A stretch of DNA of 64,000 bases from NCBI RefSeq assembly GCF_037042905.1, contig NC_087250.1, positions 12,464,001 through 12,528,000 of the forward strand, written 5' to 3'. The notes under the pieces are model-generated. The model had not been told where the DNA came from. It searched no databases and saw only the letters and a list, made by a program, of their open reading frames with translations. The position numbers were made by a program, and so were the translations under genes. Positions 6,120 through 58,795 of the stretch are shown piece by piece; the stretch's first letter is position 1, and every line of letters begins with the position of its first letter. Source of the DNA: Lytechinus pictus (Eukaryota).

Positions 6120-6258
6120 CCTCTCTCGCCAACACCATCAGCCCATCCAGAGAGGATGTACAAAATTGTTTTAGCAGGAGACGCAGCTGTGGGAAAGTCC
6201 AGTTTTATCATGAGATTGTGCAAGGGAATCTTCCACAGTAACCTCAACTCAACTTTGG
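6120..6258 (+). CDS. RASEF: RASEF Rab domain exon, P-loop (G1)
   Basis: T-rich tract + TAG acceptor, G|GTAAGT donor. [63 protein letters not shown] is characteristic of RASEF. Confidence 0.95.
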
Positions 6259-6325
6259 GTAAGTTTAGTGTGTTACCCCTGCTGGAAAGAACAGTGTCAC
6301 ACGGTGTGTTCACAGTGTGGACTAT

Positions 6326-7231
6326 GGCCCGTATTCTGAAGTCGGGTTTAACTTAAAGGAGAATGAAACATTTGGAACAAGATCGCTTGTGTGAAAACAG
6401 AAATATCAAAGAAACAGATCAACGAAAATTTGAGAAAAATCGGAAAAATAATGAGAAAGTTATGAGCATTTTAATATTGCGATCACTAATGCTATAGAGG
6501 TCCTCAAATTGGCAATGAGACAAAGATGCGTGATGTCACTTGTGAACAAGTCTCCCCATTACTTTAGTATATATTTCACTTAATAAATTGCCTCTTTTAT
6601 CACATGTATCAAGTAGATCATGTGTTCTTTCTATAGGAGTGCATGTAATACAGATTTTTAAAGAATACATCATGGATACAGAGTTTGTATCACCACAAGA
6701 AAAAGTAGAAAGATACATTTTGAGGGTATTTTATAGTCCATCAAAGGGAAAGTTGTTCACATGTGACATCACATATCATTGTTGCATTGCCAATGGGAGG
6801 ATCTCCATAGCATTAGCGATTGCAATATTCAAATGCTCATAACTTTCTCATTATTTGTCCGATTTTTCTCAAACTTTCTTTGTTCTTATTCTTTGATTTT
6901 TCTGTTTCGAAACAAGCCTACTTATTCCAAAGGTTTCATTCCCCTTTAAACTCAGGTTTTAAAGTTGTGGTTTAAGTATGAATAGCCAATTGTTACATAA
7001 ATCACTACCTGTAGAGATATATATATTTAAGCTCATTTGGCTCTCAAATCATTCATAATTGTCTAGAAAGTATGAATAGATGATTGTCTTTACCATTGAA
7101 AAAACAGGAAAGAGCACAATAAATATAAGAAACATACAACTTAATGGAAATTTTGACACTTTTGGCTTCCCATAATTTTAGCACAGAGTTAGACCATGAT
7201 CTAAGTTAAACCTGACTTCAGAATACGGGCC
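6326..7231. mobile_element. MITE family A (GGCCCGTATTCTGAAGTC TIR), interrupted copy
   Basis: TIR at both ends; homologous to 18426-18711 and 59599-59906 once 6357-6949 is removed. Confidence 0.88.
6357..6945. mobile_element. TTAA-flanked MITE (AGG...CCT ends, Kolobok-like) nested in family A
   Basis: TTAA at 6353-6356 and 6946-6949; long inverted arms starting AGGAGAATGAAAC / GTTTCATTCCCCT. Confidence 0.88.
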
Positions 7232-7512
7232 GATGTTAATATTTTATTCACACTGTTAAATATTCAAATTCAACAGTGTGAAGACAGTGTGACTGTTCAC
7301 AGCGCGTTCACATGCCCACATTGAAAAGTGTGAAGGTGATTCCACATCGTGTTGCACACATTTCCCTTTACCGTGCCAACTTAAGTTCGGATACTGAAAT
7401 TTCTGATCTAAACGTATTTTTTAGGGGGATGTCATTATTCTTTCTTTCCTTTTCTATGTATTAAGTCTAATCTATTCTTATGACGTTTTGAATCAATATC
7501 TCTTTCACGCAG

Positions 7513-7709
7513 GTGTTGACTTCCAAATGAAAACCATTGATGTGGACGACCGAGTCACATCTTTACAACTATGGGATACTGCAGGGCAGGAAAGGTTTCG
7601 CAGCATCGCTAAATCCTATTTCAGACGCGCTGATGGTGTCTTGCTGCTCTATGATTGCACGTGTGAGAGATCGTTTATTAACGTGCGTGATTGGATTGAG
7701 GCAATAGAA
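7513..7709 (+). CDS. RASEF: RASEF Rab domain exon, switch regions / G3
   Basis: CAG acceptor, GTAAGT donor at 7710. [66 protein letters not shown]. Confidence 0.96.
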
Positions 7710-7910
7710 GTAAGTATTTTATAATAATTTATTTTTATATTGACGATAGCGACAAAAACAATATAGTGACAATCACTGTTCAAACTAGTATCGATTATAC
7801 TACTGATAATGAAGACAATGACAATAATGATTATATTAATTCTAATTGCAATAATGATAATAATGATAAGGATAATGAAAATGGCAAGATTCAGCCTGCT
7901 GTCTTCTATA

Positions 7911-21700: not shown

Positions 21701-22458
21701 GCAGTAGGATTAAGGCGCGGCATCCATTGGATAAGTGTTCTTTCCCCAGTCTTAATCGAAATCTACACCAACGATCAACTTGTTTCATTTAATTACCGGA
21801 AGCTTTCACTCCGTGGAAGACCTCGGATTTACAATTCAGACCAGCGATGGAAGGGAAAAACCCATTACATCATAGAAGCGAAACAGACAGCACATTATAC
21901 ATTCAGAGACAAAGGCTCAAGTTTGCACCTTAAATCAAATCCTTTCGTGAGTAACCTTGTCCTGTAAGTGGCGAAAGGGGAATAATGTGCACGTCGTATT
22001 TTTGTTATTTGAACCCAGAGATTCTCAGTGGAACAGCTATAACTGCAGAATATACGGGTACACGTAGCGGAAAAGATCAAGAGAGAGAGAGGGGGTGTTT
22101 GGGAGAAAAAGATACCAAGAGAAGCGAACAAAAGCAAGATCATCACTTCAAAACGTCATTGATTAGTCACATACTAATATAACAATGGAAACAAACAATG
22201 GAACAAAGGAAAATTTGATACATTTTTCTAAATTTCTTTATTCTTTTTTGTTTTGTTTAAAACCTTTCGTAATCGCTAACCTTCATTAAATCAGTCTAAA
22301 TTGTATAAACATCATGGGTGTTAGGTTCAAATTGGTTTGTACCAAATGAATTCAAGAAGCATTCATGGCGAGATATTGGTTAGATATGAACCTCCCGAAC
22401 ATATAAATGTATATGTGTGTGTGTATATATACATTTATATATATTTATATATATATAT

Positions 22459-22494
<36 letters not shown>

Positions 22495-22581
22495 GTATAT
22501 AAGACATCAGAAATGCGAAACAAATTCACGAGTAATGCAGTTTTTGAAGTGCCAACAATTAAGTTCTTTTATTCACTCTCC

Positions 22582-22638
<57 letters not shown>

Positions 22639-22971
22639 TCTATATATTGGTTTGCACTAATCATTGCTCGATTACTTCTTTTCAATGTTTTCATATATTT
22701 GCCCTCACTGGTCATTTTTTCCTATTTACACAATTGAATACACTATACAAAATTCATGACAAATGAGGGGGCCGTAATTGAATATATTGTATATTATTTG
22801 TGATCTTTTTATCAAATGCATTTTCAAATATGTCAAGAATTTGCTTGTTCCTACATATTTACGACCACATTTGAATAAATCAAAGTTAAATGTCATAACG
22901 ATGGTAACACGAACACAAAAATCATATATCAGAAATGAACGATTCGTGTAAGTAGCAAAGTATATATAACA

Positions 22972-23020
<49 letters not shown>

Positions 23021-23023
<3 letters not shown>

Positions 23024-23351
23024 AAAGAAATGAATGAAGAGAACAATGGTAGGCGTAGCTTAAATCAAGGTTCCCCAGAGCTATCTACCCTTGAGAAAAA
23101 TTGGTGATGCCGAAAAAATGTCTCTGCCGGGAATCGAACCCGGGCCCCCAGCTTTGAACGCCGGTGCCTTAACCACTAGACCACAGAGACAGGTTAGTGG
23201 CTAGGGCGACCCCGATCCGATTGACCGTCAGATAGACAGATTTTCGACACTATACCAATTATAATTTCCTTTGTCGGGTGAAGGTGGGTTTTGAACAATG
23301 ACAAGCCGCCATGCCTCAGCTGGATCAAAGCTATTGCTTTGATACAGTACA
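23021..23351. mobile_element. ~330-bp cassette carrying the TCA tRNA, inserted in a (TA)n microsatellite
   Basis: Complex sequence sharply bounded by long (TA)n runs on both sides; starts TGTA and ends near TACA. Confidence 0.5.
23119..23190 (-). tRNA. 72-nt cloverleaf tRNA (or tRNA-like gene) with anticodon TCA, short variable loop
   Basis: Minus strand: GTCTCTG TG GTCT AGTGGTTA AGGC A CCGGC GTTCAAA GCTGG GGGC CCGGG TTCGATT CCCGG CAGAGAC A. All four stems pair (two G-U), A and B boxes intact, TTTTTT immediately downstream. Confidence 0.75.
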
Positions 23352-23352
23352 C

Positions 23353-23403
<51 letters not shown>

Positions 23404-24449
23404 AAGTTAAGGTGTGAGAGTGCGTGTGCGAATGTGTGTAAAATCACAGCATATCGTCTCGTTTAACTTTTTTTATCCATACCGATAATAACAAAATAAT
23501 GATAATCTCGGGCAAAACTGATTCCCCCTTTAAGACGACAGCTATAAAATAGAAGAAGTACGGATTCGATTTTAACAAAACGTGCTAGGCATTAGAGCTT
23601 TGCCATTTTGGTAAATGTGCAGAGGGAAAACCCACAAGTTATTTATCTCCTGGGGGTTATGTTAATTTGAGGATGCCCTGTGTACCGGTGAGGACTAGAC
23701 CGCGCCTTGCCCTTTGCAAACTGCATCGATTTTTGGCTCTCCCACTCAGCTGAGGAAAATTGATTTCAATGTTCATCATGTCTCTCTCCCTCTCTCTCTC
23801 TCCAGGAAATTGATTTCAATCAATTTCTACAAACCCCCGGCCCCCCTCTCTGACTCTCTCTCTCCCGCGAAGGAAAATGTATGTCAATCTTCATCTTATC
23901 TCTCTGTCTCTTTTCTCTATCTCTTTCCCACCAAGGAAAGTTGATTTAAATCTTGATCATCTTCACCCTCCCCCCTCTCTCCCGCAAAGGAGAATTATTT
24001 ATATCAATCTTCATCTCATCTCTCTGTCTCTTGTTCTCTATCTCTTTCCCACCAAGGAAAGTTGATTTAAATCTTCACCCCCTCTCTGTTTCTCTCTTTT
24101 TCCGAAAAATTGTTTCCATGTTTATCATGTTTATCCCTTCCTCCCTCCCTCTCTCCAACCAAAAAAACTCTACCTTAATCTTTAGCATGCCCTTCCCCTC
24201 CCTCCCTCTCCCTATCTACCTATCTCCAATCCTCTCTTTCTCACCAAGTCACTTCCTCCCCTGTATTACCAAACTCAATCTCTCCTCCTCTATTCCGCTT
24301 ACTCTTCATCCTCTATCTCTACGTACACATTTGTTACATTTTCACCATGGGTGTTTGGTTAAAAGTTGTTCGTACCAAATACATTCAAGAAGCATTCATG
24401 GTGATCTTTGTTAGATATGAACCTCCCAACCATATAAATATGTGTGTGG

Positions 24450-24522
<73 letters not shown>

Positions 24523-24758
24523 TGTGTGTGTGTGTGGTGCTCTATAAATTAAGCGAACCCCACCAGAAAATATTTAATTGTGAAGTCTGGTGAAAAAATA
24601 CTACATTTAAGATAGTTTTTTTCTCTGCGCTTGCCAAGTATTGCAGTATTGTTGTCTATATTCAACACTCAGCATGAAAAAGCGCACCTTGTTGTGGGTT
24701 CATCAACGTTTGAGTACAACTCTGTGTGTCTGTGTGAGGGGTGTGTGTGTATATATGC

Positions 24759-24790
<32 letters not shown>

Positions 24791-24828
24791 TGCTTTGCAC
24801 TAATCATTTTTTGTTCTCTTTGATGTTT

Positions 24829-25076
24829 GCCCCGTCTTACAAAGAGTTGCGATTGATCCAATCAACCACAACGCCAATATCTATTATGCTCGTTTTTTCA
24901 AAATATTTTTTATGATGCATATTCATACATTCATTGTTTTCTGAAAAATTCAGTGTGCTTCTTTTTGTGTACAAAGGAGATTGAGCACATTTCCTGTACA
25001 AAAAATATGACATTGATGGCTTTCCATAGAGTTGAGATTGATTGGATCAATCGTAACTCTTTGTAAGACGGGAACC
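24829..25076. mobile_element. MITE family E (CCCGTCTTACAAAGAGTT TIR)
   Basis: Inverted ends; homologous to 50601-50873. Confidence 0.8.
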
Positions 25077-27080
25077 TGATCTCATTCATTTTTTTAATAA
25101 ATGAACCCTTCTCTGCACTTTCTGTCGTTTAATTTATTGACTTACTTTTCCCTACTCTCTCGCTATATATTCGCGTATACAAAGTTTACCGCGACTTGAA
25201 ATTCCTTTATTAGAAAAAGAAATATTTCAAATCCCAGGTTTTAGCAAAGGTCGCTTAATAAATTATCAATGACAAGAGCAATTTAATTGTACATTTGTTT
25301 GCTTTATAATATGGAATCATGTCTCGGTATGCCAACAGCAATGTTCCTAAAACATCCCCCCGAATCGCTTGAGATTCGCTGTAAGCCGAATACGTTGGAC
25401 ACAATTTTCTTTCTAAAAAAAAATCAATGTCAGCATATCTTCGTATGCATGCTCAGTGTTCATACATGTTACAAACGTCTGTTATATTACAACAACCACT
25501 TTGTATCGATAAAAAGAGATACAATGAAACAAGTACGCCGTCTACAATTTCCTCTAAATTCTGACTTAATGTTAGTGTGTTGTGACATTTCCAACAAAAG
25601 TTCCAACAAAAATTTTCGCGTTTGATTATTATTTGTATTTATTACGATTTAAATCCATTTTCTCTTTTTACTGAGCACATCCTATTCTTGGAATGGATGT
25701 GATGTTTTAAAATTGCCAATTGCTTCAGTTATATGCATTTTTTTTCATACGAAACTGATGAGGTAACCACAAATTGTTGTACTCTTATCACGTCCCTTTC
25801 CCAACTTATCTCTCGTTCCATCCTTCAGGCTAGCATCCTCCTTTTTATAGCTACTCTTTTTCCCCCTATCCTCCTAATGGTTTACTGAAGATTACTCGCT
25901 TATTCATTCAGTCAATTGTTTTAGCTTTATTTTTAGAAAAGTAATGTATCTTCCCGTTCCTCTTTTACCGTTTCAGGTGCAATATAAAGTGCTCCTACGT
26001 CATCGTCAATTCAACATCCGGCGAATTCTCCAATAACAGGTCTCTTCAACAAACAAGCCACAATTACGCGCTCTCTCTATCTATCTCGACCTGCATCAAC
26101 TTGCATTTCGAGCTCCCAGCTAGCTCTCACACACAGAGAGACGCACTCGCATAACGCCATACACGCGCACACACACACACACTCAGTCCAGCAACGCTTC
26201 CAACCCTACTGGAGACGACCGCATAAATAAGGGTCATCCAACGTCTGCTTCGATCGGGAGTTGATTAGGTGAATTTGCCCTCCGTTTGTTTTACGCCAGT
26301 TGAGTATTGAACGAATCAATAGCGGAGTTAGAGACAGCGGATGCATTCACCACTCGCTTGCATCGTGATCGTTTGTTACGGAAGCCAGTGTCCCGCCCTT
26401 GAAATACGGCCGGGTTGGGAATTCGCTTACTCTGAGAAACAGGCAAACTCATCCATTTGAAAAGGTGGAAAATGCATGACTGATTGTTCTCCCTTAGGGA
26501 AAAAATAGTGAGATACATTTGTGGAATTTTATAAGGGATGTGTATCAAGTGATTTTAGAAAAGGGATGTTCTCATGATGGATAGGTGAACAGCCCGCACT
26601 TGGCATTTTAAATAGTACTTTTTGAGGGAATATCCGGTTTGAATATCCGGGAAAGATCTTTCGAGATCGAAGAACTACACCCAAGAGGAATTATTTTGCT
26701 TTACAGGAGATACTGTTGAAACCTGCGCTGAACGTTATCTATTACTGCTATTTCCTCAAAGACAATAAGTTCGTGATTAAAAGTATAAAATAAAATCATA
26801 TGGGGAAACTTTTTCCGGTGGCAAAGGCGATTCTTCATATGTTAAGTAAAACAAACGACAATGGTTCCTTCAAGACATTTCAATTATTTCTGCTTGTATC
26901 ACGACCAGTGCTAGATACGGAGTAATCATAACAGAGAAACGGACACTCAAGCATCTGGAAGTTTCATTCAAACCTACAGAGCAACGGGAGGATACACTGC
27001 AATAATAAGGTGGTTGATAAAAGAAAGATCAGAAAGGCTTTGCCTAACGGGATTTTGACCGGTGCTTTCTGAATGTAACA

Positions 27081-28073
27081 ATGTCTCCAGGTCGTGACGG
27101 CACCCCAAGTGTTACACAGCTGAAGGACCAGAGATTGAGTGTCTACTGTTCGCCAAGATTCTGCAGGAGAAGTCGGTACCTTGAGAAAGCCTGCGTGAAC
27201 TCTATGCTGGAGAAGAAGGACGATTTCGGGTGGCAACGAGCTTTTAATCCGCGATTCTTCAGCAAGGGGTCGCCCTCGTCGACGCGCAAGGACGGGAAGC
27301 GCGCCATCTCTTCAAACGGGGCCAGTCCGCCGTTCCAGTGCCAGCGCCGGAAGTTCACCTCGCAGTCCACACTATCACATCTGTCGTCTTCAGACACCGA
27401 TTCGCTAGGGTGTACTAATCTAATGGCGAATCTGGATCTTAGCTCACCGAAAATCACTACCAATGACGCCGGCCCGGAAGAGGATAATCCATCGGCACCA
27501 GGCACTCCGACGCTGCTTCCAAAGCGACAAAAGCAGCGTCCCGTGTCTCTCGCTCTGCTCGACAACCACGCTTCGCAGAGTCTGGATTCGAATGCAAATG
27601 GTGAGCATCTTGGTTCGGCTTGTTGCAGTCTACACGTGCGGAAGGACCGCGCCGCCGACCGTAGCCCTGCCGGATCGGCTCGGGCAATTCCAACCTCTTC
27701 AAAGGGTCTGAACCCACCTTCCTATAACCCACTGAGCAAGTCATGTTCTGATTTGCGTGGGGGAACTATCGACGAATGCTGCATGATTCATCGTAACTTT
27801 AGCTGCAGGTGCCCCAGTCACCTCTCACTTCAGTCTGCGCGCGTATCTACGCCTTCAGACTCGCATACTGGCTCTAGAATAAGCCTTTTATCGGAAGGAG
27901 TTGACTCCTACGAGGGACTCTATGAAAAGGCCTATAGAGCCACGTACGTGATGGACAGGGACCGGCTGGTGAATGAGTCTAAAGTCTCTCCAGATAGACT
28001 GGTGCGGGAATGGTTAGCAAGACAAGAAGAAGTTACCCAGAATACACCAGAACAACAGGAAGTAAAACAATGA
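27081..28073 (+). CDS. Uncharacterised 330-aa Ser/Pro/Arg-rich protein, uninterrupted ORF
   Basis: 993-bp ORF, by far the longest in the window, visibly more GC/CpG-rich than its flanks, ACAATG start context, AT-rich sequence right after the stop. No domain recognised. Confidence 0.75.
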   Translation: MSPGRDGTPSVTQLKDQRLSVYCSPRFCRRSRYLEKACVNSMLEKKDDFGWQRAFNPRFFSKGSPSSTRKDGKRAISSNGASPPFQCQRRKFTSQSTLSHLSSSDTDSLGCTNLMANLDLSSPKITTNDAGPEEDNPSAPGTPTLLPKRQKQRPVSLALLDNHASQSLDSNANGEHLGSACCSLHVRKDRAADRSPAGSARAIPTSSKGLNPPSYNPLSKSCSDLRGGTIDECCMIHRNFSCRCPSHLSLQSARVSTPSDSHTGSRISLLSEGVDSYEGLYEKAYRATYVMDRDRLVNESKVSPDRLVREWLARQEEVTQNTPEQQEVKQ

Positions 28074-33375: not shown

Positions 33376-33670
33376 CGCGTCGTGGTCTAGTGGTTCTGAC
33401 TCTTGCCTTTCAAACCGAGGGTCGCGGCTTCGAATCCTAGCCATGGCGTGTTTTTCCTTCAGCAAGAAATTTATCCACACTGTGAGATGAATGAGTACCC
33501 GGTAGGAAGAAATTCCTCGAATGCTCGGGCGCCCGATCAAGGTAGCCGTGCTAAAGCCGGTGTAATAATAACATTATGTTAAGCAGGGCCCGCTGTTAGA
33601 ACAGTTTCCAGAACTGAAGTGGCGTCCCTGGGTAGAATACGACGTTATTATCATTATTATTATTATTATA
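33376..33670 (+). mobile_element. tRNA-derived SINE, near full length
   Basis: A box (GTGGTCTAGTGG), B-box-like CTTCGAATCC, central domain, LINE-like tail and (ATT)n end. Confidence 0.88.
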
Positions 33671-50600: not shown

Positions 50601-50873
50601 GGGCCCGTCTTACAAAGAGTTACGATTGATCGGATCAATCGCAACTACGGAAAGCCAGCAAAGTCAACATGTAAAAATGCATATTTGTTCAAAAAAAAAT
50701 TCTAGATATGAATGTATATCCGTAAATTCATTGATTTTTTGACAAATTGATGTGTTCTCATTCGTTTACAAAGAACGTTTTGCAAATTTCCTGTAGAAAA
50801 AATCACGACACTGATGGATTTCCATAGAGTTACGATTGATTGGATCAATCGTAACTCATTGTAAGACGGGGCC
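50601..50873. mobile_element. MITE family E, CTG TSD
   Basis: GGGCCCGTCTTACAAAGAGTTACGATTGATC with matching inverted right end; CTG on both sides. Confidence 0.85.
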
Positions 50874-52211
50874 CTGGTCCATGTTTCGGGATTCGTGTGA
50901 GAGAATGACTAAGGCTTAATTAGCATTACTGTAAAGCCGGTGACTCATCCCTGAGATGTAACATGATGACGTCAGCACTCACGTGATGTCTGGCGATTTT
51001 TTTATTTTGTCGGCCTTCCATCCTTGATGCAAAGCGTGCCAAGGCATGATGATGGAGAACGGAGAACGCATTACAATGGATGAGGGAAATGACCTTGCTT
51101 TTGGATACGAGATGAATTTCCTGTATTTTACTTCATCAAAGCATTGCCTCTGTATTCTGTCTTCTCCATGATTCCGCCCCTCCCCGATTCCCCCAAATCT
51201 CCCCCCTTGACCTCTCCCCTCTCTTCCCCCCCCCCCTTCCCCTCTTTCTCTTTCTTTTTCTTTTCTCTTTCCCCCTATCCCACACCTCCCCTCTCTCTAT
51301 GTATATATTTCTCTCTGTACCTGTAAGTTCCTTCGCATTTTCTATTCTTCCCCTCTAGAGCAACTCTCTTGATCAGCCACTCTCCTTATAAATGAATGAG
51401 ACAAGACAAAAGTGATGATTTAACGAAAACGTACATAATTTTGTCTCAATTCCTGTTTAATGAAAACCAACGGTCCTTGAGTGGTTAGGCATCAATAACC
51501 CATAATTTCGAATATTTTTTGTCAGAAGTTGTATTTTTCGAGGTTTCATTCCAAAACGAGGTTAATACATTGAGCAGTAAAATTTGCCCAAAGATTTGAA
51601 TAATAGATCTTTGCAATTTAGTTGCATTAACTCTTTGCACACTTAATTAATTTTGGGGGGATAATAATGACAATTGTTTCCATGTTATATCATTCAGTTC
51701 AAGATATCCATATTGCACCATTGATAATTGTATCATTATATAGATTTCATCCAAGAACTGTTGCTTTTTATTTGCTGATCTAATTTGAAGGTAGGGGAGA
51801 AAACTAATTATTAAGAAATTTATTCTACAAATTATAGAATAATCTTTTTTTTTGCGAACAACTCCATTTAGCTCTCTCCGCTGGCTCCCGTTCTAAACTA
51901 AAAACAAAACTGTCGACATGAGCATTTTCTTTAAGACTATATATTTCTTATATTCTTATCTTCCACTTTATCAACAGTCGAGATGTGAGAAAAATGGGGC
52001 TCGCTAGTAAGGAAAAAAAACAAGAGCATGCAATCTTTCTTCTTAGTTGCATCGCCTTCCTTCTGTACAGATAGAAAGAGAAGGAAATCTTCTGGATGCC
52101 AAGTATGAATGATTGGTACAGTTGGTAACTCTTTTATTGAAATATGTTACATACATACAATACATTGTGACACGACATTTGCTCCTGCGACAAATGCTTA
52201 ATTTCGTCTAA

Positions 52212-58616: not shown

Positions 58617-58795
58617 GGGGGCGTCGTGGTTTAGTGGTCACGACTCTCCGTCTTTCAATCAGAGGGACGTGGGCTCGAATCCCAGCCATGGCGTGTTTTT
58701 CCTTCAGCAAGAAATTTACCCACATTGTGCTGCATTCGACCCAGGTGATGGGAATGGGTACCTGGAAGGATCTATTCCTTGAATGCCTTAGCGAC
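58617..58795 (+). mobile_element. tRNA-derived SINE, 3'-truncated copy of the same family
   Basis: Shares AGCCATGGCGTGTTTTTCCTTCAGCAAGAAATTTA with the 33376 copy; a further fragment lies near 60290-60360. Confidence 0.85.

Follow-up and report, generated by a model that had tools for sequence, protein, structure and literature searches.

A tRNA-like cloverleaf with a UGA-reading TCA anticodon belongs to a high-copy repeat of inverted-dimer build in the sea urchin Lytechinus pictus

The closest described counterparts of the element reported here are the tRNA-derived SINEs of sea urchins and other invertebrates, and the families used for comparison were Repbase SINE2-1_SP to SINE2-6_SP and the MetaSINE, Deu, CORE, and MESC superfamilies, as treated in excerpts of two reports (PMC4824008, PMC4758252). 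According to those excerpts, such SINEs share with our element a tRNA-derived head, A and B boxes, and a short, high-copy unit, and also a stem-loop in the tail, internal T-runs followed by C, and heads that are called as tRNA genes with odd anticodons. In the invertebrate SINEs covered by the excerpt of PMC4758252, every internal run of four or five Ts has a C behind it, which makes termination by Pol III less efficient. The Lytechinus unit differs from the sea urchin SINEs (the Repbase families being compared by description only) in its flawless cloverleaf, in the run of six Ts immediately behind it, and in an inverted, degenerate arm upstream.

A repeated unit that begins well upstream of the tRNA part is also found in the pectinoid MESC elements, the LP-SINEs, and the 5S-tRNA Deu-SINEs, as excerpted from PMC4758252. 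In those elements the 5′ addition is a piece of a LINE 5′ UTR or a 5S rRNA, whereas the Lytechinus unit has part of its own sequence there, in inverted orientation. As the unit starts upstream of its tRNA-like part, a tRNA promoter by itself is not enough to explain the transcript that was copied. Palindromic SINE pairs of bivalves, described in part of PMC11481361, likewise consist of head-to-head copies able to form long hairpins; the pairs in that part of the report are individual loci that arose from neighbouring insertions, whereas in Lytechinus the inverted dimer itself has been amplified.

Repeats are also a known source of tRNA calls, as in the cow, where tRNAscan-SE made 31,868 calls (PMC2680898, in the part consulted). 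Animal predictions of Sup-TCA tRNAs, or of SeC tRNAs by anticodon, resemble the present case in that a repeat-borne tRNA-like sequence is scored as a tRNA. Repeat-borne suppressor predictions are usually flagged as pseudogenes; the sequence described here differs from them in its high score (60.9 bits) and in having no broken stem. With eukaryotic tRNA-Sec, a molecule of ~87–90 nt with a 9/4 fold, a 6-bp D stem, and a long variable arm, it has in common only the TCA anticodon and A37. The family is unusual in that most copies combine a flawless cloverleaf with a stop anticodon, in the T6 run with C immediately after it, and in the amplified inverted dimer. The literature that was searched, with Repbase lying outside that search, contained no report of a repeat with a TCA-anticodon tRNA-like sequence in sea urchins.

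The locus lies in a 64,000-nucleotide stretch of Lytechinus pictus contig NC_087250.1, referred to here as the window and numbered from its first letter. On the minus strand, positions 23119–23190 read as a 72-nt tRNA-like sequence of class I build with the anticodon TCA. The acceptor stem has 7 bp (GTCTCTG/CAGAGAC), the D stem 4 bp (GTCT/AGGC, with one T·G pair), the anticodon stem 5 bp (CCGGC/GCTGG, with one G·T pair), and the T stem 5 bp (CCGGG/CCCGG), with a T-loop of TTCGATT and a variable loop of 4 nt. Positions typical of tRNAs are present, namely T8, A14, the D-loop GG, T33, A37, and a discriminator A. The anticodon, which reads UGA, occupies positions 34–36 (23155..23157, minus strand) within the loop GTTCAAA, that is, G32-T33-TCA-A37-A38. 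Directly 3′ of the discriminator comes the T6 run (23113..23118, minus strand), followed by CG, and a second run of five Ts lies farther on at 23096–23100 (minus strand), followed by CT in the window copy and by CC in most copies. Within the module we take TGGTCTAGTGG to be an A-box-like motif and GGTTCGATTCC to be a perfect B box, both assigned against the consensus of these boxes.

ARAGORN reported a single tRNA in the 64-kb window, at 23118–23191 on the minus strand, and labelled it SeC(tca), a label that arises from the anticodon alone. The Rfam tRNA model (RF00005), for which the gathering score is 29, matched at 60.9 bits (E = 9.8e-11), covering model positions 1–71 of 71; this was the sole Rfam match at gathering level and the best in its clan, and the cmscan alignment flagged zero non-standard pairs. 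The initial annotation had described a 72-nt canonical cloverleaf on this strand with every stem paired, with TCA at positions 34–36, the conserved positions and T-loop listed above, and TTTTTT directly after, and all of this agrees with the letters themselves. The minimum-free-energy fold from ViennaRNA leaves the D arm open and is not the full cloverleaf (−30.4 kcal/mol, z = −2.0, with 5 of 200 shuffled sequences as stable), a weakness common for tRNAs. The G+C content of the 72 nt is 61%, and the D and T loops are canonical. Position 32 is a G, as had been noted at the outset to be atypical, whereas elongator tRNAs almost always have a pyrimidine there. The T arm presumably resembles those of animal tRNA-Glu, tRNA-Gly, and tRNA-Asp, in line with the Glu-like D and T arms of the initial annotation, and the 5′ acceptor strand presumably that of vertebrate tRNA-Asn; the acceptor and anticodon stems matched no nameable isotype.

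Contigs and reads from four public runs were mapped onto positions 23035–23348 (314 nt) at a likeness of at least 80%, and the ends of the unit and the variation of the family, as given below, are derived from the summary tables of that mapping. All or part of the 314-nt segment is contained in 20 of the 24 public runs listed (11 studies). Of the organism labels B, C, D, and E, which contain 0.63–0.70 of the sampled words, C alone entered the mapping and serves as evidence here. In the DNA run X4, 7300 contigs fell on the segment, 2384 of them at 99% identity or more, 2613 at 95–99%, 1837 at 90–95%, and 466 below 90%. Summed word depth in this run was 0.15–1.2 million per bin, whereas the eight single long contigs listed had depths of 17–46. 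On this reading the family comprises thousands of copies, perhaps on the order of 10^4, though summed depth is not itself a copy number. Single X4 contigs cover 23038–23344 unbroken, including the tRNA and both flanks, at ~85% identity; copies thus have the sequence on either side of the tRNA in common, which is not the picture of a stand-alone gene. The sequence at 23119–23190 (minus strand) belongs to a high-copy interspersed repeat and is not a lone gene.

The suggestion in the initial annotation that the cloverleaf resides in a mobile or repeated element is thus upheld by the 7300 contigs of X4. Its contrast with SINE heads, which were said to differ from this sequence because they run on into a body, has to be given up, since the repeat continues on both sides of the cloverleaf and past the T-run. 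Exactly one copy of the unit is present within the 64-kb window. Beyond it, run X11, which carries a different organism label, yielded a 173-nt contig of depth 177 on 23078–23250 with three differences, none in the tRNA, and the marine metatranscriptome X20 yielded three contigs on 23040–23250. An exact-pattern scan with the tRNA core, in which any anticodon was allowed, gave 0 matches in metagenome, genome, and viral contig collections, and peptide searches with ORFs crossing the tRNA and the upstream arm returned no candidates within the length windows searched.

The extent of the unit could be read from the loose ends of the mapping. Past 23038/23041 and 23346 these ends still read the terminal letters found in the window and only afterwards pass into unrelated A/T-rich DNA, which places the ends of the unit at ~23021 (TGTA...) and ~23351 (...TACA). 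The whole unit (23021..23351, minus strand) is accordingly ~331 bp long, with the ends TGTA...TACA, and it is bordered by (AT)n microsatellites on both sides, one at 22975..23020 adjoining the left end and one at 23355..23400 adjoining the right end after ACGT. A long imperfect hairpin is predicted for its RNA or DNA: positions 23022–23350 (329 nt) fold at −125.3 kcal/mol versus −89.0 ± 5.9 kcal/mol for shuffled sequences (z = −6.17, 0 of 100 as good), and this strong fold is due to an inverted repeat. The sense arm (23052..23152, minus strand) takes in tRNA positions 39–72 and the T-run and extends through the first half of the 3′ tail. The opposing arm (23200..23310, plus strand) comprises the 3′ half of the tRNA in antisense, a shortened T-run (TTTT then C), and tail sequence, and lacks tRNA positions 1–38.

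Aligned with each other, the two arms gave 77 matches in 121 columns, 30 of them gap columns, with a score of 51 (z = 7.8); 500 shuffles scored 21.5 ± 3.8, with a largest value of 40. The whole unit against its own reverse complement was not significant (44 versus 28 ± 6 for shuffled sequences, largest 56). Judged from the arm alignment, the upstream part is a degenerate, 5′-truncated copy of the tRNA-plus-tail monomer in opposite orientation. In X4, ~160 nt on the upstream side of the tRNA recur with it from copy to copy. An Rfam search of the upstream arm found no tRNA, 5S, or 7SL match at E values up to 10, and matches to mir-297 and the like in the upstream part were rejected as (AT)n artefacts far below their gathering scores.

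The monomer itself is laid out as the 72-nt tRNA, T6 followed by CG, and a tail of ~97 nt that includes the T5-C run and a stem-loop. This 10-bp stem-loop (23048..23089, minus strand; GGTAG-A-TAGCT ... AGCTA-CGC-CTACC) lies in the region of highest summed depth, the X4 bins at 23046–23078 reaching 0.89–1.22 million. Near the other end of the unit there is an 8-bp hairpin, ATCAAAGC-AATA-GCTTTGAT (23324..23343, minus strand), which coincides with a self-inverted blastn match at 23320–23347. Arrangements other than that of the window copy appear in the mapping as well. Joints between opposite strands make up 6 of the 15 joint rows listed for X4, and a loose end in the RNA run X24, behind 23283, reads the tRNA 3′ half on the plus strand; both observations indicate that the family contains inverted arrangements of other kinds. 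Some family copies carry palindromic insertions of 24–26 nt (of the ATGGACC...GGTCCAT type) at the joints 23065>23058 and 23237>23231, which may be footprints of another small element.

Variation among copies bears on whether the anticodon is peculiar to the window copy. Among the best 40 of the 69 variants, no variant was found at the anticodon (23155–23157) and none in the T6 run (23113–23118). Because no anticodon variant appears among the variants listed, TCA, together with the fold, is the majority state of the family and not a one-off change in the window copy. Five variants fall inside the 72 nt among those listed, each at no more than 1.2% of X4 depth: A68>G and C28>T keep a wobble pair, G44>A and G32>A are unpaired, and G42>T breaks a pair. 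A check for other anticodons or broken stems across the family, proposed in the initial annotation, thus turned up none of the former and a single pair-breaking change (among the best 40 of the 69 variants), and the described cloverleaf came through it. The change G32>A (23159) is found at 0.3% of X4 depth and in ~10% of X24 reads; it is the only variant listed at that position and is also a purine.

Whether the tRNA part is specially conserved depends on the comparison made. With a cut-off of 5% of X4 depth, none of the 72 tRNA positions was variable, against 22 of the 242 flanking positions (Fisher p = 0.0034). At the same cut-off, the tRNA and its own 3′ tail showed no clear contrast (0/72 versus 4/84). 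In the RNA run X24, the corresponding figures for tRNA and flanks were 4/72 versus 30/242 at the 5% cut-off (p = 0.13) and 1/72 versus 25/242 at a 10% cut-off (p = 0.013). The majority of the variable sites sit in the upstream inverted arm.

Three letters of the window copy, at 23093, 23094, and 23191, disagree with most of the family; it also differs at 23210, 23287, and 23340, where the family is approximately split. At 23093 and 23094 the window letter differs from at least 99% of X4 depth, and at 23191 from 96%. Overall, some 4–6 of the 314 positions differ from the majority, none of them in the tRNA. By this measure the window copy is a young one with a tRNA of the majority type, and its youth is probably why its cloverleaf is intact. 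We take the intact fold mainly as a sign of youth and homogeneity, and it is no proof of selection on tRNA function.

The cloverleaf is probably the tRNA-derived Pol III module of a non-autonomous repeat of ~331 bp, built as an inverted dimer, in which the stop anticodon is incidental. The head would supply the A and B boxes and hence the Pol III promoter of this short non-autonomous repeat. One arm would be a full monomer, consisting of the tRNA-like head, the T-run then C, and the tail of ~97 nt with its stem-loop, and the other arm a degenerate, 5′-truncated monomer in opposite orientation. The TCA anticodon would have been inherited by the family without a decoding role, because the head needs only its promoter boxes and perhaps its fold, and aminoacylation would be absent. 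It should be said that the intact fold, the A36-A37-A38 stretch, the T6 run, and the perfect B box are also exactly what is expected of a functional gene. As an argument for a stand-alone gene, the T6 run is weakened by the C that follows it, a setting in which read-through is reportedly favoured in SINEs of other invertebrates (PMC4758252), and by the continuation of the repeat beyond.

As for how such a module was multiplied, we lean slightly toward amplification by retroposition as a SINE. The tRNA-related region with its A and B boxes and the short, high-copy, dispersed unit are those of a SINE, but the head does not stand at the 5′ end of the repeated unit. Also in favour of a SINE are two older tRNA-derived SINE heads elsewhere in the window, which have a T5-C run in the corresponding place, and the published SINEs with 5′ additions or in palindromic pairs mentioned above. 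Classical SINE retroposition fails to explain the copying of the whole unit, since a Pol III transcript would be without the upstream arm and, if terminated, without the tail. Target-site duplications are unreadable because (AT)n lies on both sides.

The same difficulties leave some room for a carrier that moves at the DNA level, either a MITE or foldback element or a solo LTR or TRIM, which would have captured a SINE or tRNA unit and would carry a T6-ended Pol III gene passively, much as the Cassandra elements of plants do with 5S genes. We consider this rather unlikely, although the unit is a small imperfect palindrome of ~331 bp with the ends TGTA...TACA, occurs in high copy, and lies in A/T-rich DNA or (AT)n at the window copy and at others. 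The T6 run right behind the tRNA would end a Pol III transcript before the tail, and a transcript initiated at the tRNA cannot contain the upstream arm, and both points speak for such a carrier. Against such a carrier, blastn shows no clean terminal inverted repeat, the arms are alike in just 77 of 121 columns, and the target-site duplication that might identify it cannot be read. Depth also falls unevenly across the unit, at ~0.9–1.2 million summed word depth over the tRNA and tail versus ~0.5–0.8 million over the other arm, and 18 X4 contigs keep the tail end only, matching as far as ~23092–23102 and then diverging. This gradient and the tail-only contigs look like 5′ truncation of the retroposon type, or as if a LINE had the same tail.

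No transposase, LINE, or reverse transcriptase was found within the 64-kb window by a Pfam scan of 151 of the 161 ORFs of at least 70 aa. The 10 ORFs outside the scan lie in microsatellite or CT-repeat DNA at 22325–24912 or are other frames of the gene at 27 kb. What the scan did yield was the Ras family on two exon ORFs and one sub-threshold match to Vir1p. Two further element classes were set aside by eye, as the ends of the unit fit neither the TC...CTRR of a Helitron nor the TA-CAGT of a Tc1-type element.

Turning from the carrier to the cloverleaf, the module reading given above competes with a decoding role. In its strongest form, every young copy would be a self-contained Pol III gene for tRNA(UCA) housed in a palindromic element, with a fraction of the product charged, which we regard as highly improbable. 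Hardly more credible is the general case of a working opal-suppressor or UGA-decoding tRNA, in which some copies would yield processed, CCA-tailed, and charged transcripts that read UGA, whether weakly or only in certain stages. The sequence is well equipped for it: all stems pair, no conserved position for tertiary contacts is missing, the Pol III signals are there (A-box-like motif, perfect B box, T6 terminator), A36-A37-A38 suits the i6A37 context, and both TCA and the fold are the family majority. However, an active suppressor in thousands of copies should harm its host, G32 is a purine and the sole variant listed there is a purine too, and the acceptor and anticodon stems match no nameable isotype. 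A suppressor function predicted from such features is unlikely.

UGA also serves as a stop close to the repeat. The single-exon ORF at 27048–28073 (gene 27081–28073, plus strand) encodes 330 aa with no Pfam family, in an island of 48% G+C, and its product is 97% identical (321/330) to Lytechinus variegatus LOC121416869, 76% identical to a Diadema homologue, and 35–42% identical to those of starfish and brittle stars. Its last codons read ...EVKQ-TGA, and the stop falls at the residue where the L. variegatus and Diadema homologues also end. As far as this one gene can tell, UGA is read as a stop, with a C-terminus conserved as far as Diadema, and a host in which UGA is a sense codon is not what was found there.

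Expression data speak to the matter only in part. In X24, a standard paired-end cDNA run, 2002 reads were placed on the segment (first and second mates, 1014 and 988), with depth approximately equal on both strands and flat over the tRNA and its flanks. There was no site at which molecules start or end, no excess depth over the tRNA, and no tRNA-sized species in X24, a type of library unable to show mature tRNA. Loose ends with high agreement in this run point to a few expressed host transcripts that bear copies. The proposal in the initial annotation of a possible suppressor tRNA, or a tRNA mimic, maintained within a mobile element is thus sound in its first half, an intact TCA cloverleaf in a repeat; the step to an opal suppressor does not follow, given the thousands of copies, the G at position 32, the UGA stop next door, and the flat X24 profile, from a library ill-suited to mature tRNA though it is. 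Were the step nonetheless right, the urchin would hold a genome-wide, normally silenced reservoir of opal suppressors or of tRNA-like regulatory RNA. Plant Cassandra elements carry 5S genes, and the present family would then be their tRNA counterpart.

A nuclear copy of mitochondrial tRNA-Trp(UCA) (UGA encodes Trp in echinoderm mitochondria) or a relative of tRNA-Sec can be dismissed with near certainty, as both are suggested by the anticodon alone, for which ARAGORN prints "tRNA-SeC", whereas the 61% G+C, the canonical D and T loops, the 60.9 bits on a general tRNA model, the cytosolic-type Pol III boxes and terminator, and the thousands of copies with common nuclear flanks speak against the former, and the 7/5 acceptor/T build, the 4-bp D stem, the 4-nt variable loop, and the length of 72 nt, with no 9/4 fold and no long arm, speak against the latter, as the initial annotation had rightly held, the eighth acceptor pair drawn by ARAGORN using position 23191, at which 96% of X4 depth differs from the window.

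For annotation, the immediate consequence of the repeat is that tRNA finders run on Lytechinus assemblies will return "SeC" or "Sup-TCA" genes by the thousand, all with high scores; the TCA family should be masked as a repeat and excluded from tRNA gene counts. For the biology of mobile elements, its unusual build poses a puzzle over how such a unit comes to be transcribed and copied. Long hairpin RNAs are predicted wherever a copy sits in a transcript. Consequences for translation would follow only from a TCA RNA that is both expressed and charged.

The window as a whole is ~35% G+C and rich in microsatellites. ORFs for exons of a small GTPase of the Ras/Roc family lie at 6120–6353 and 7425–7721 on the plus strand (Pfam PF00071, E = 8e-6 and 6e-22). 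Two older, degenerate SINE heads derived from tRNA are present at 33377–33484 and 58621–58729, also on the plus strand, and match each other at 85% across 109 nt. Both have broken acceptor and anticodon stems and the loop CTTTCAA(A/T), and their likeness to the TCA tRNA is ~69%; the tRNA-like part of each passes straight into a T5 run, followed by CC and then CTTCAGCAAGAAATTTAYCCACAYTGTG. Both are missed by tRNA finders at default thresholds. With the T-run excluded, the trailer of the TCA unit compared with the bodies of these two heads only at chance level (251 of 2000 and 539 of 2000 shuffles as good).

Several other repeats lie in the surrounding DNA. A different repeat, with two copies at 22310–22665 and 24343–24808, brackets the locus at a distance of 2 kb between copies; the left ~180 nt of the two are 86% alike, an internal (AT)n follows, and the right part is 93% alike over 61 nt. 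Positions 23759–24182 hold CT-rich direct repeats with a spacing of ~54–121 nt, including identical 42-nt copies at 23913 and 24034. Finally, a short repeat at 24911–25085 recurs at 50604–50882 (82–88% alike), is present in both orientations, and has an internal inverted pair at 24831–24872 and 25031–25072.
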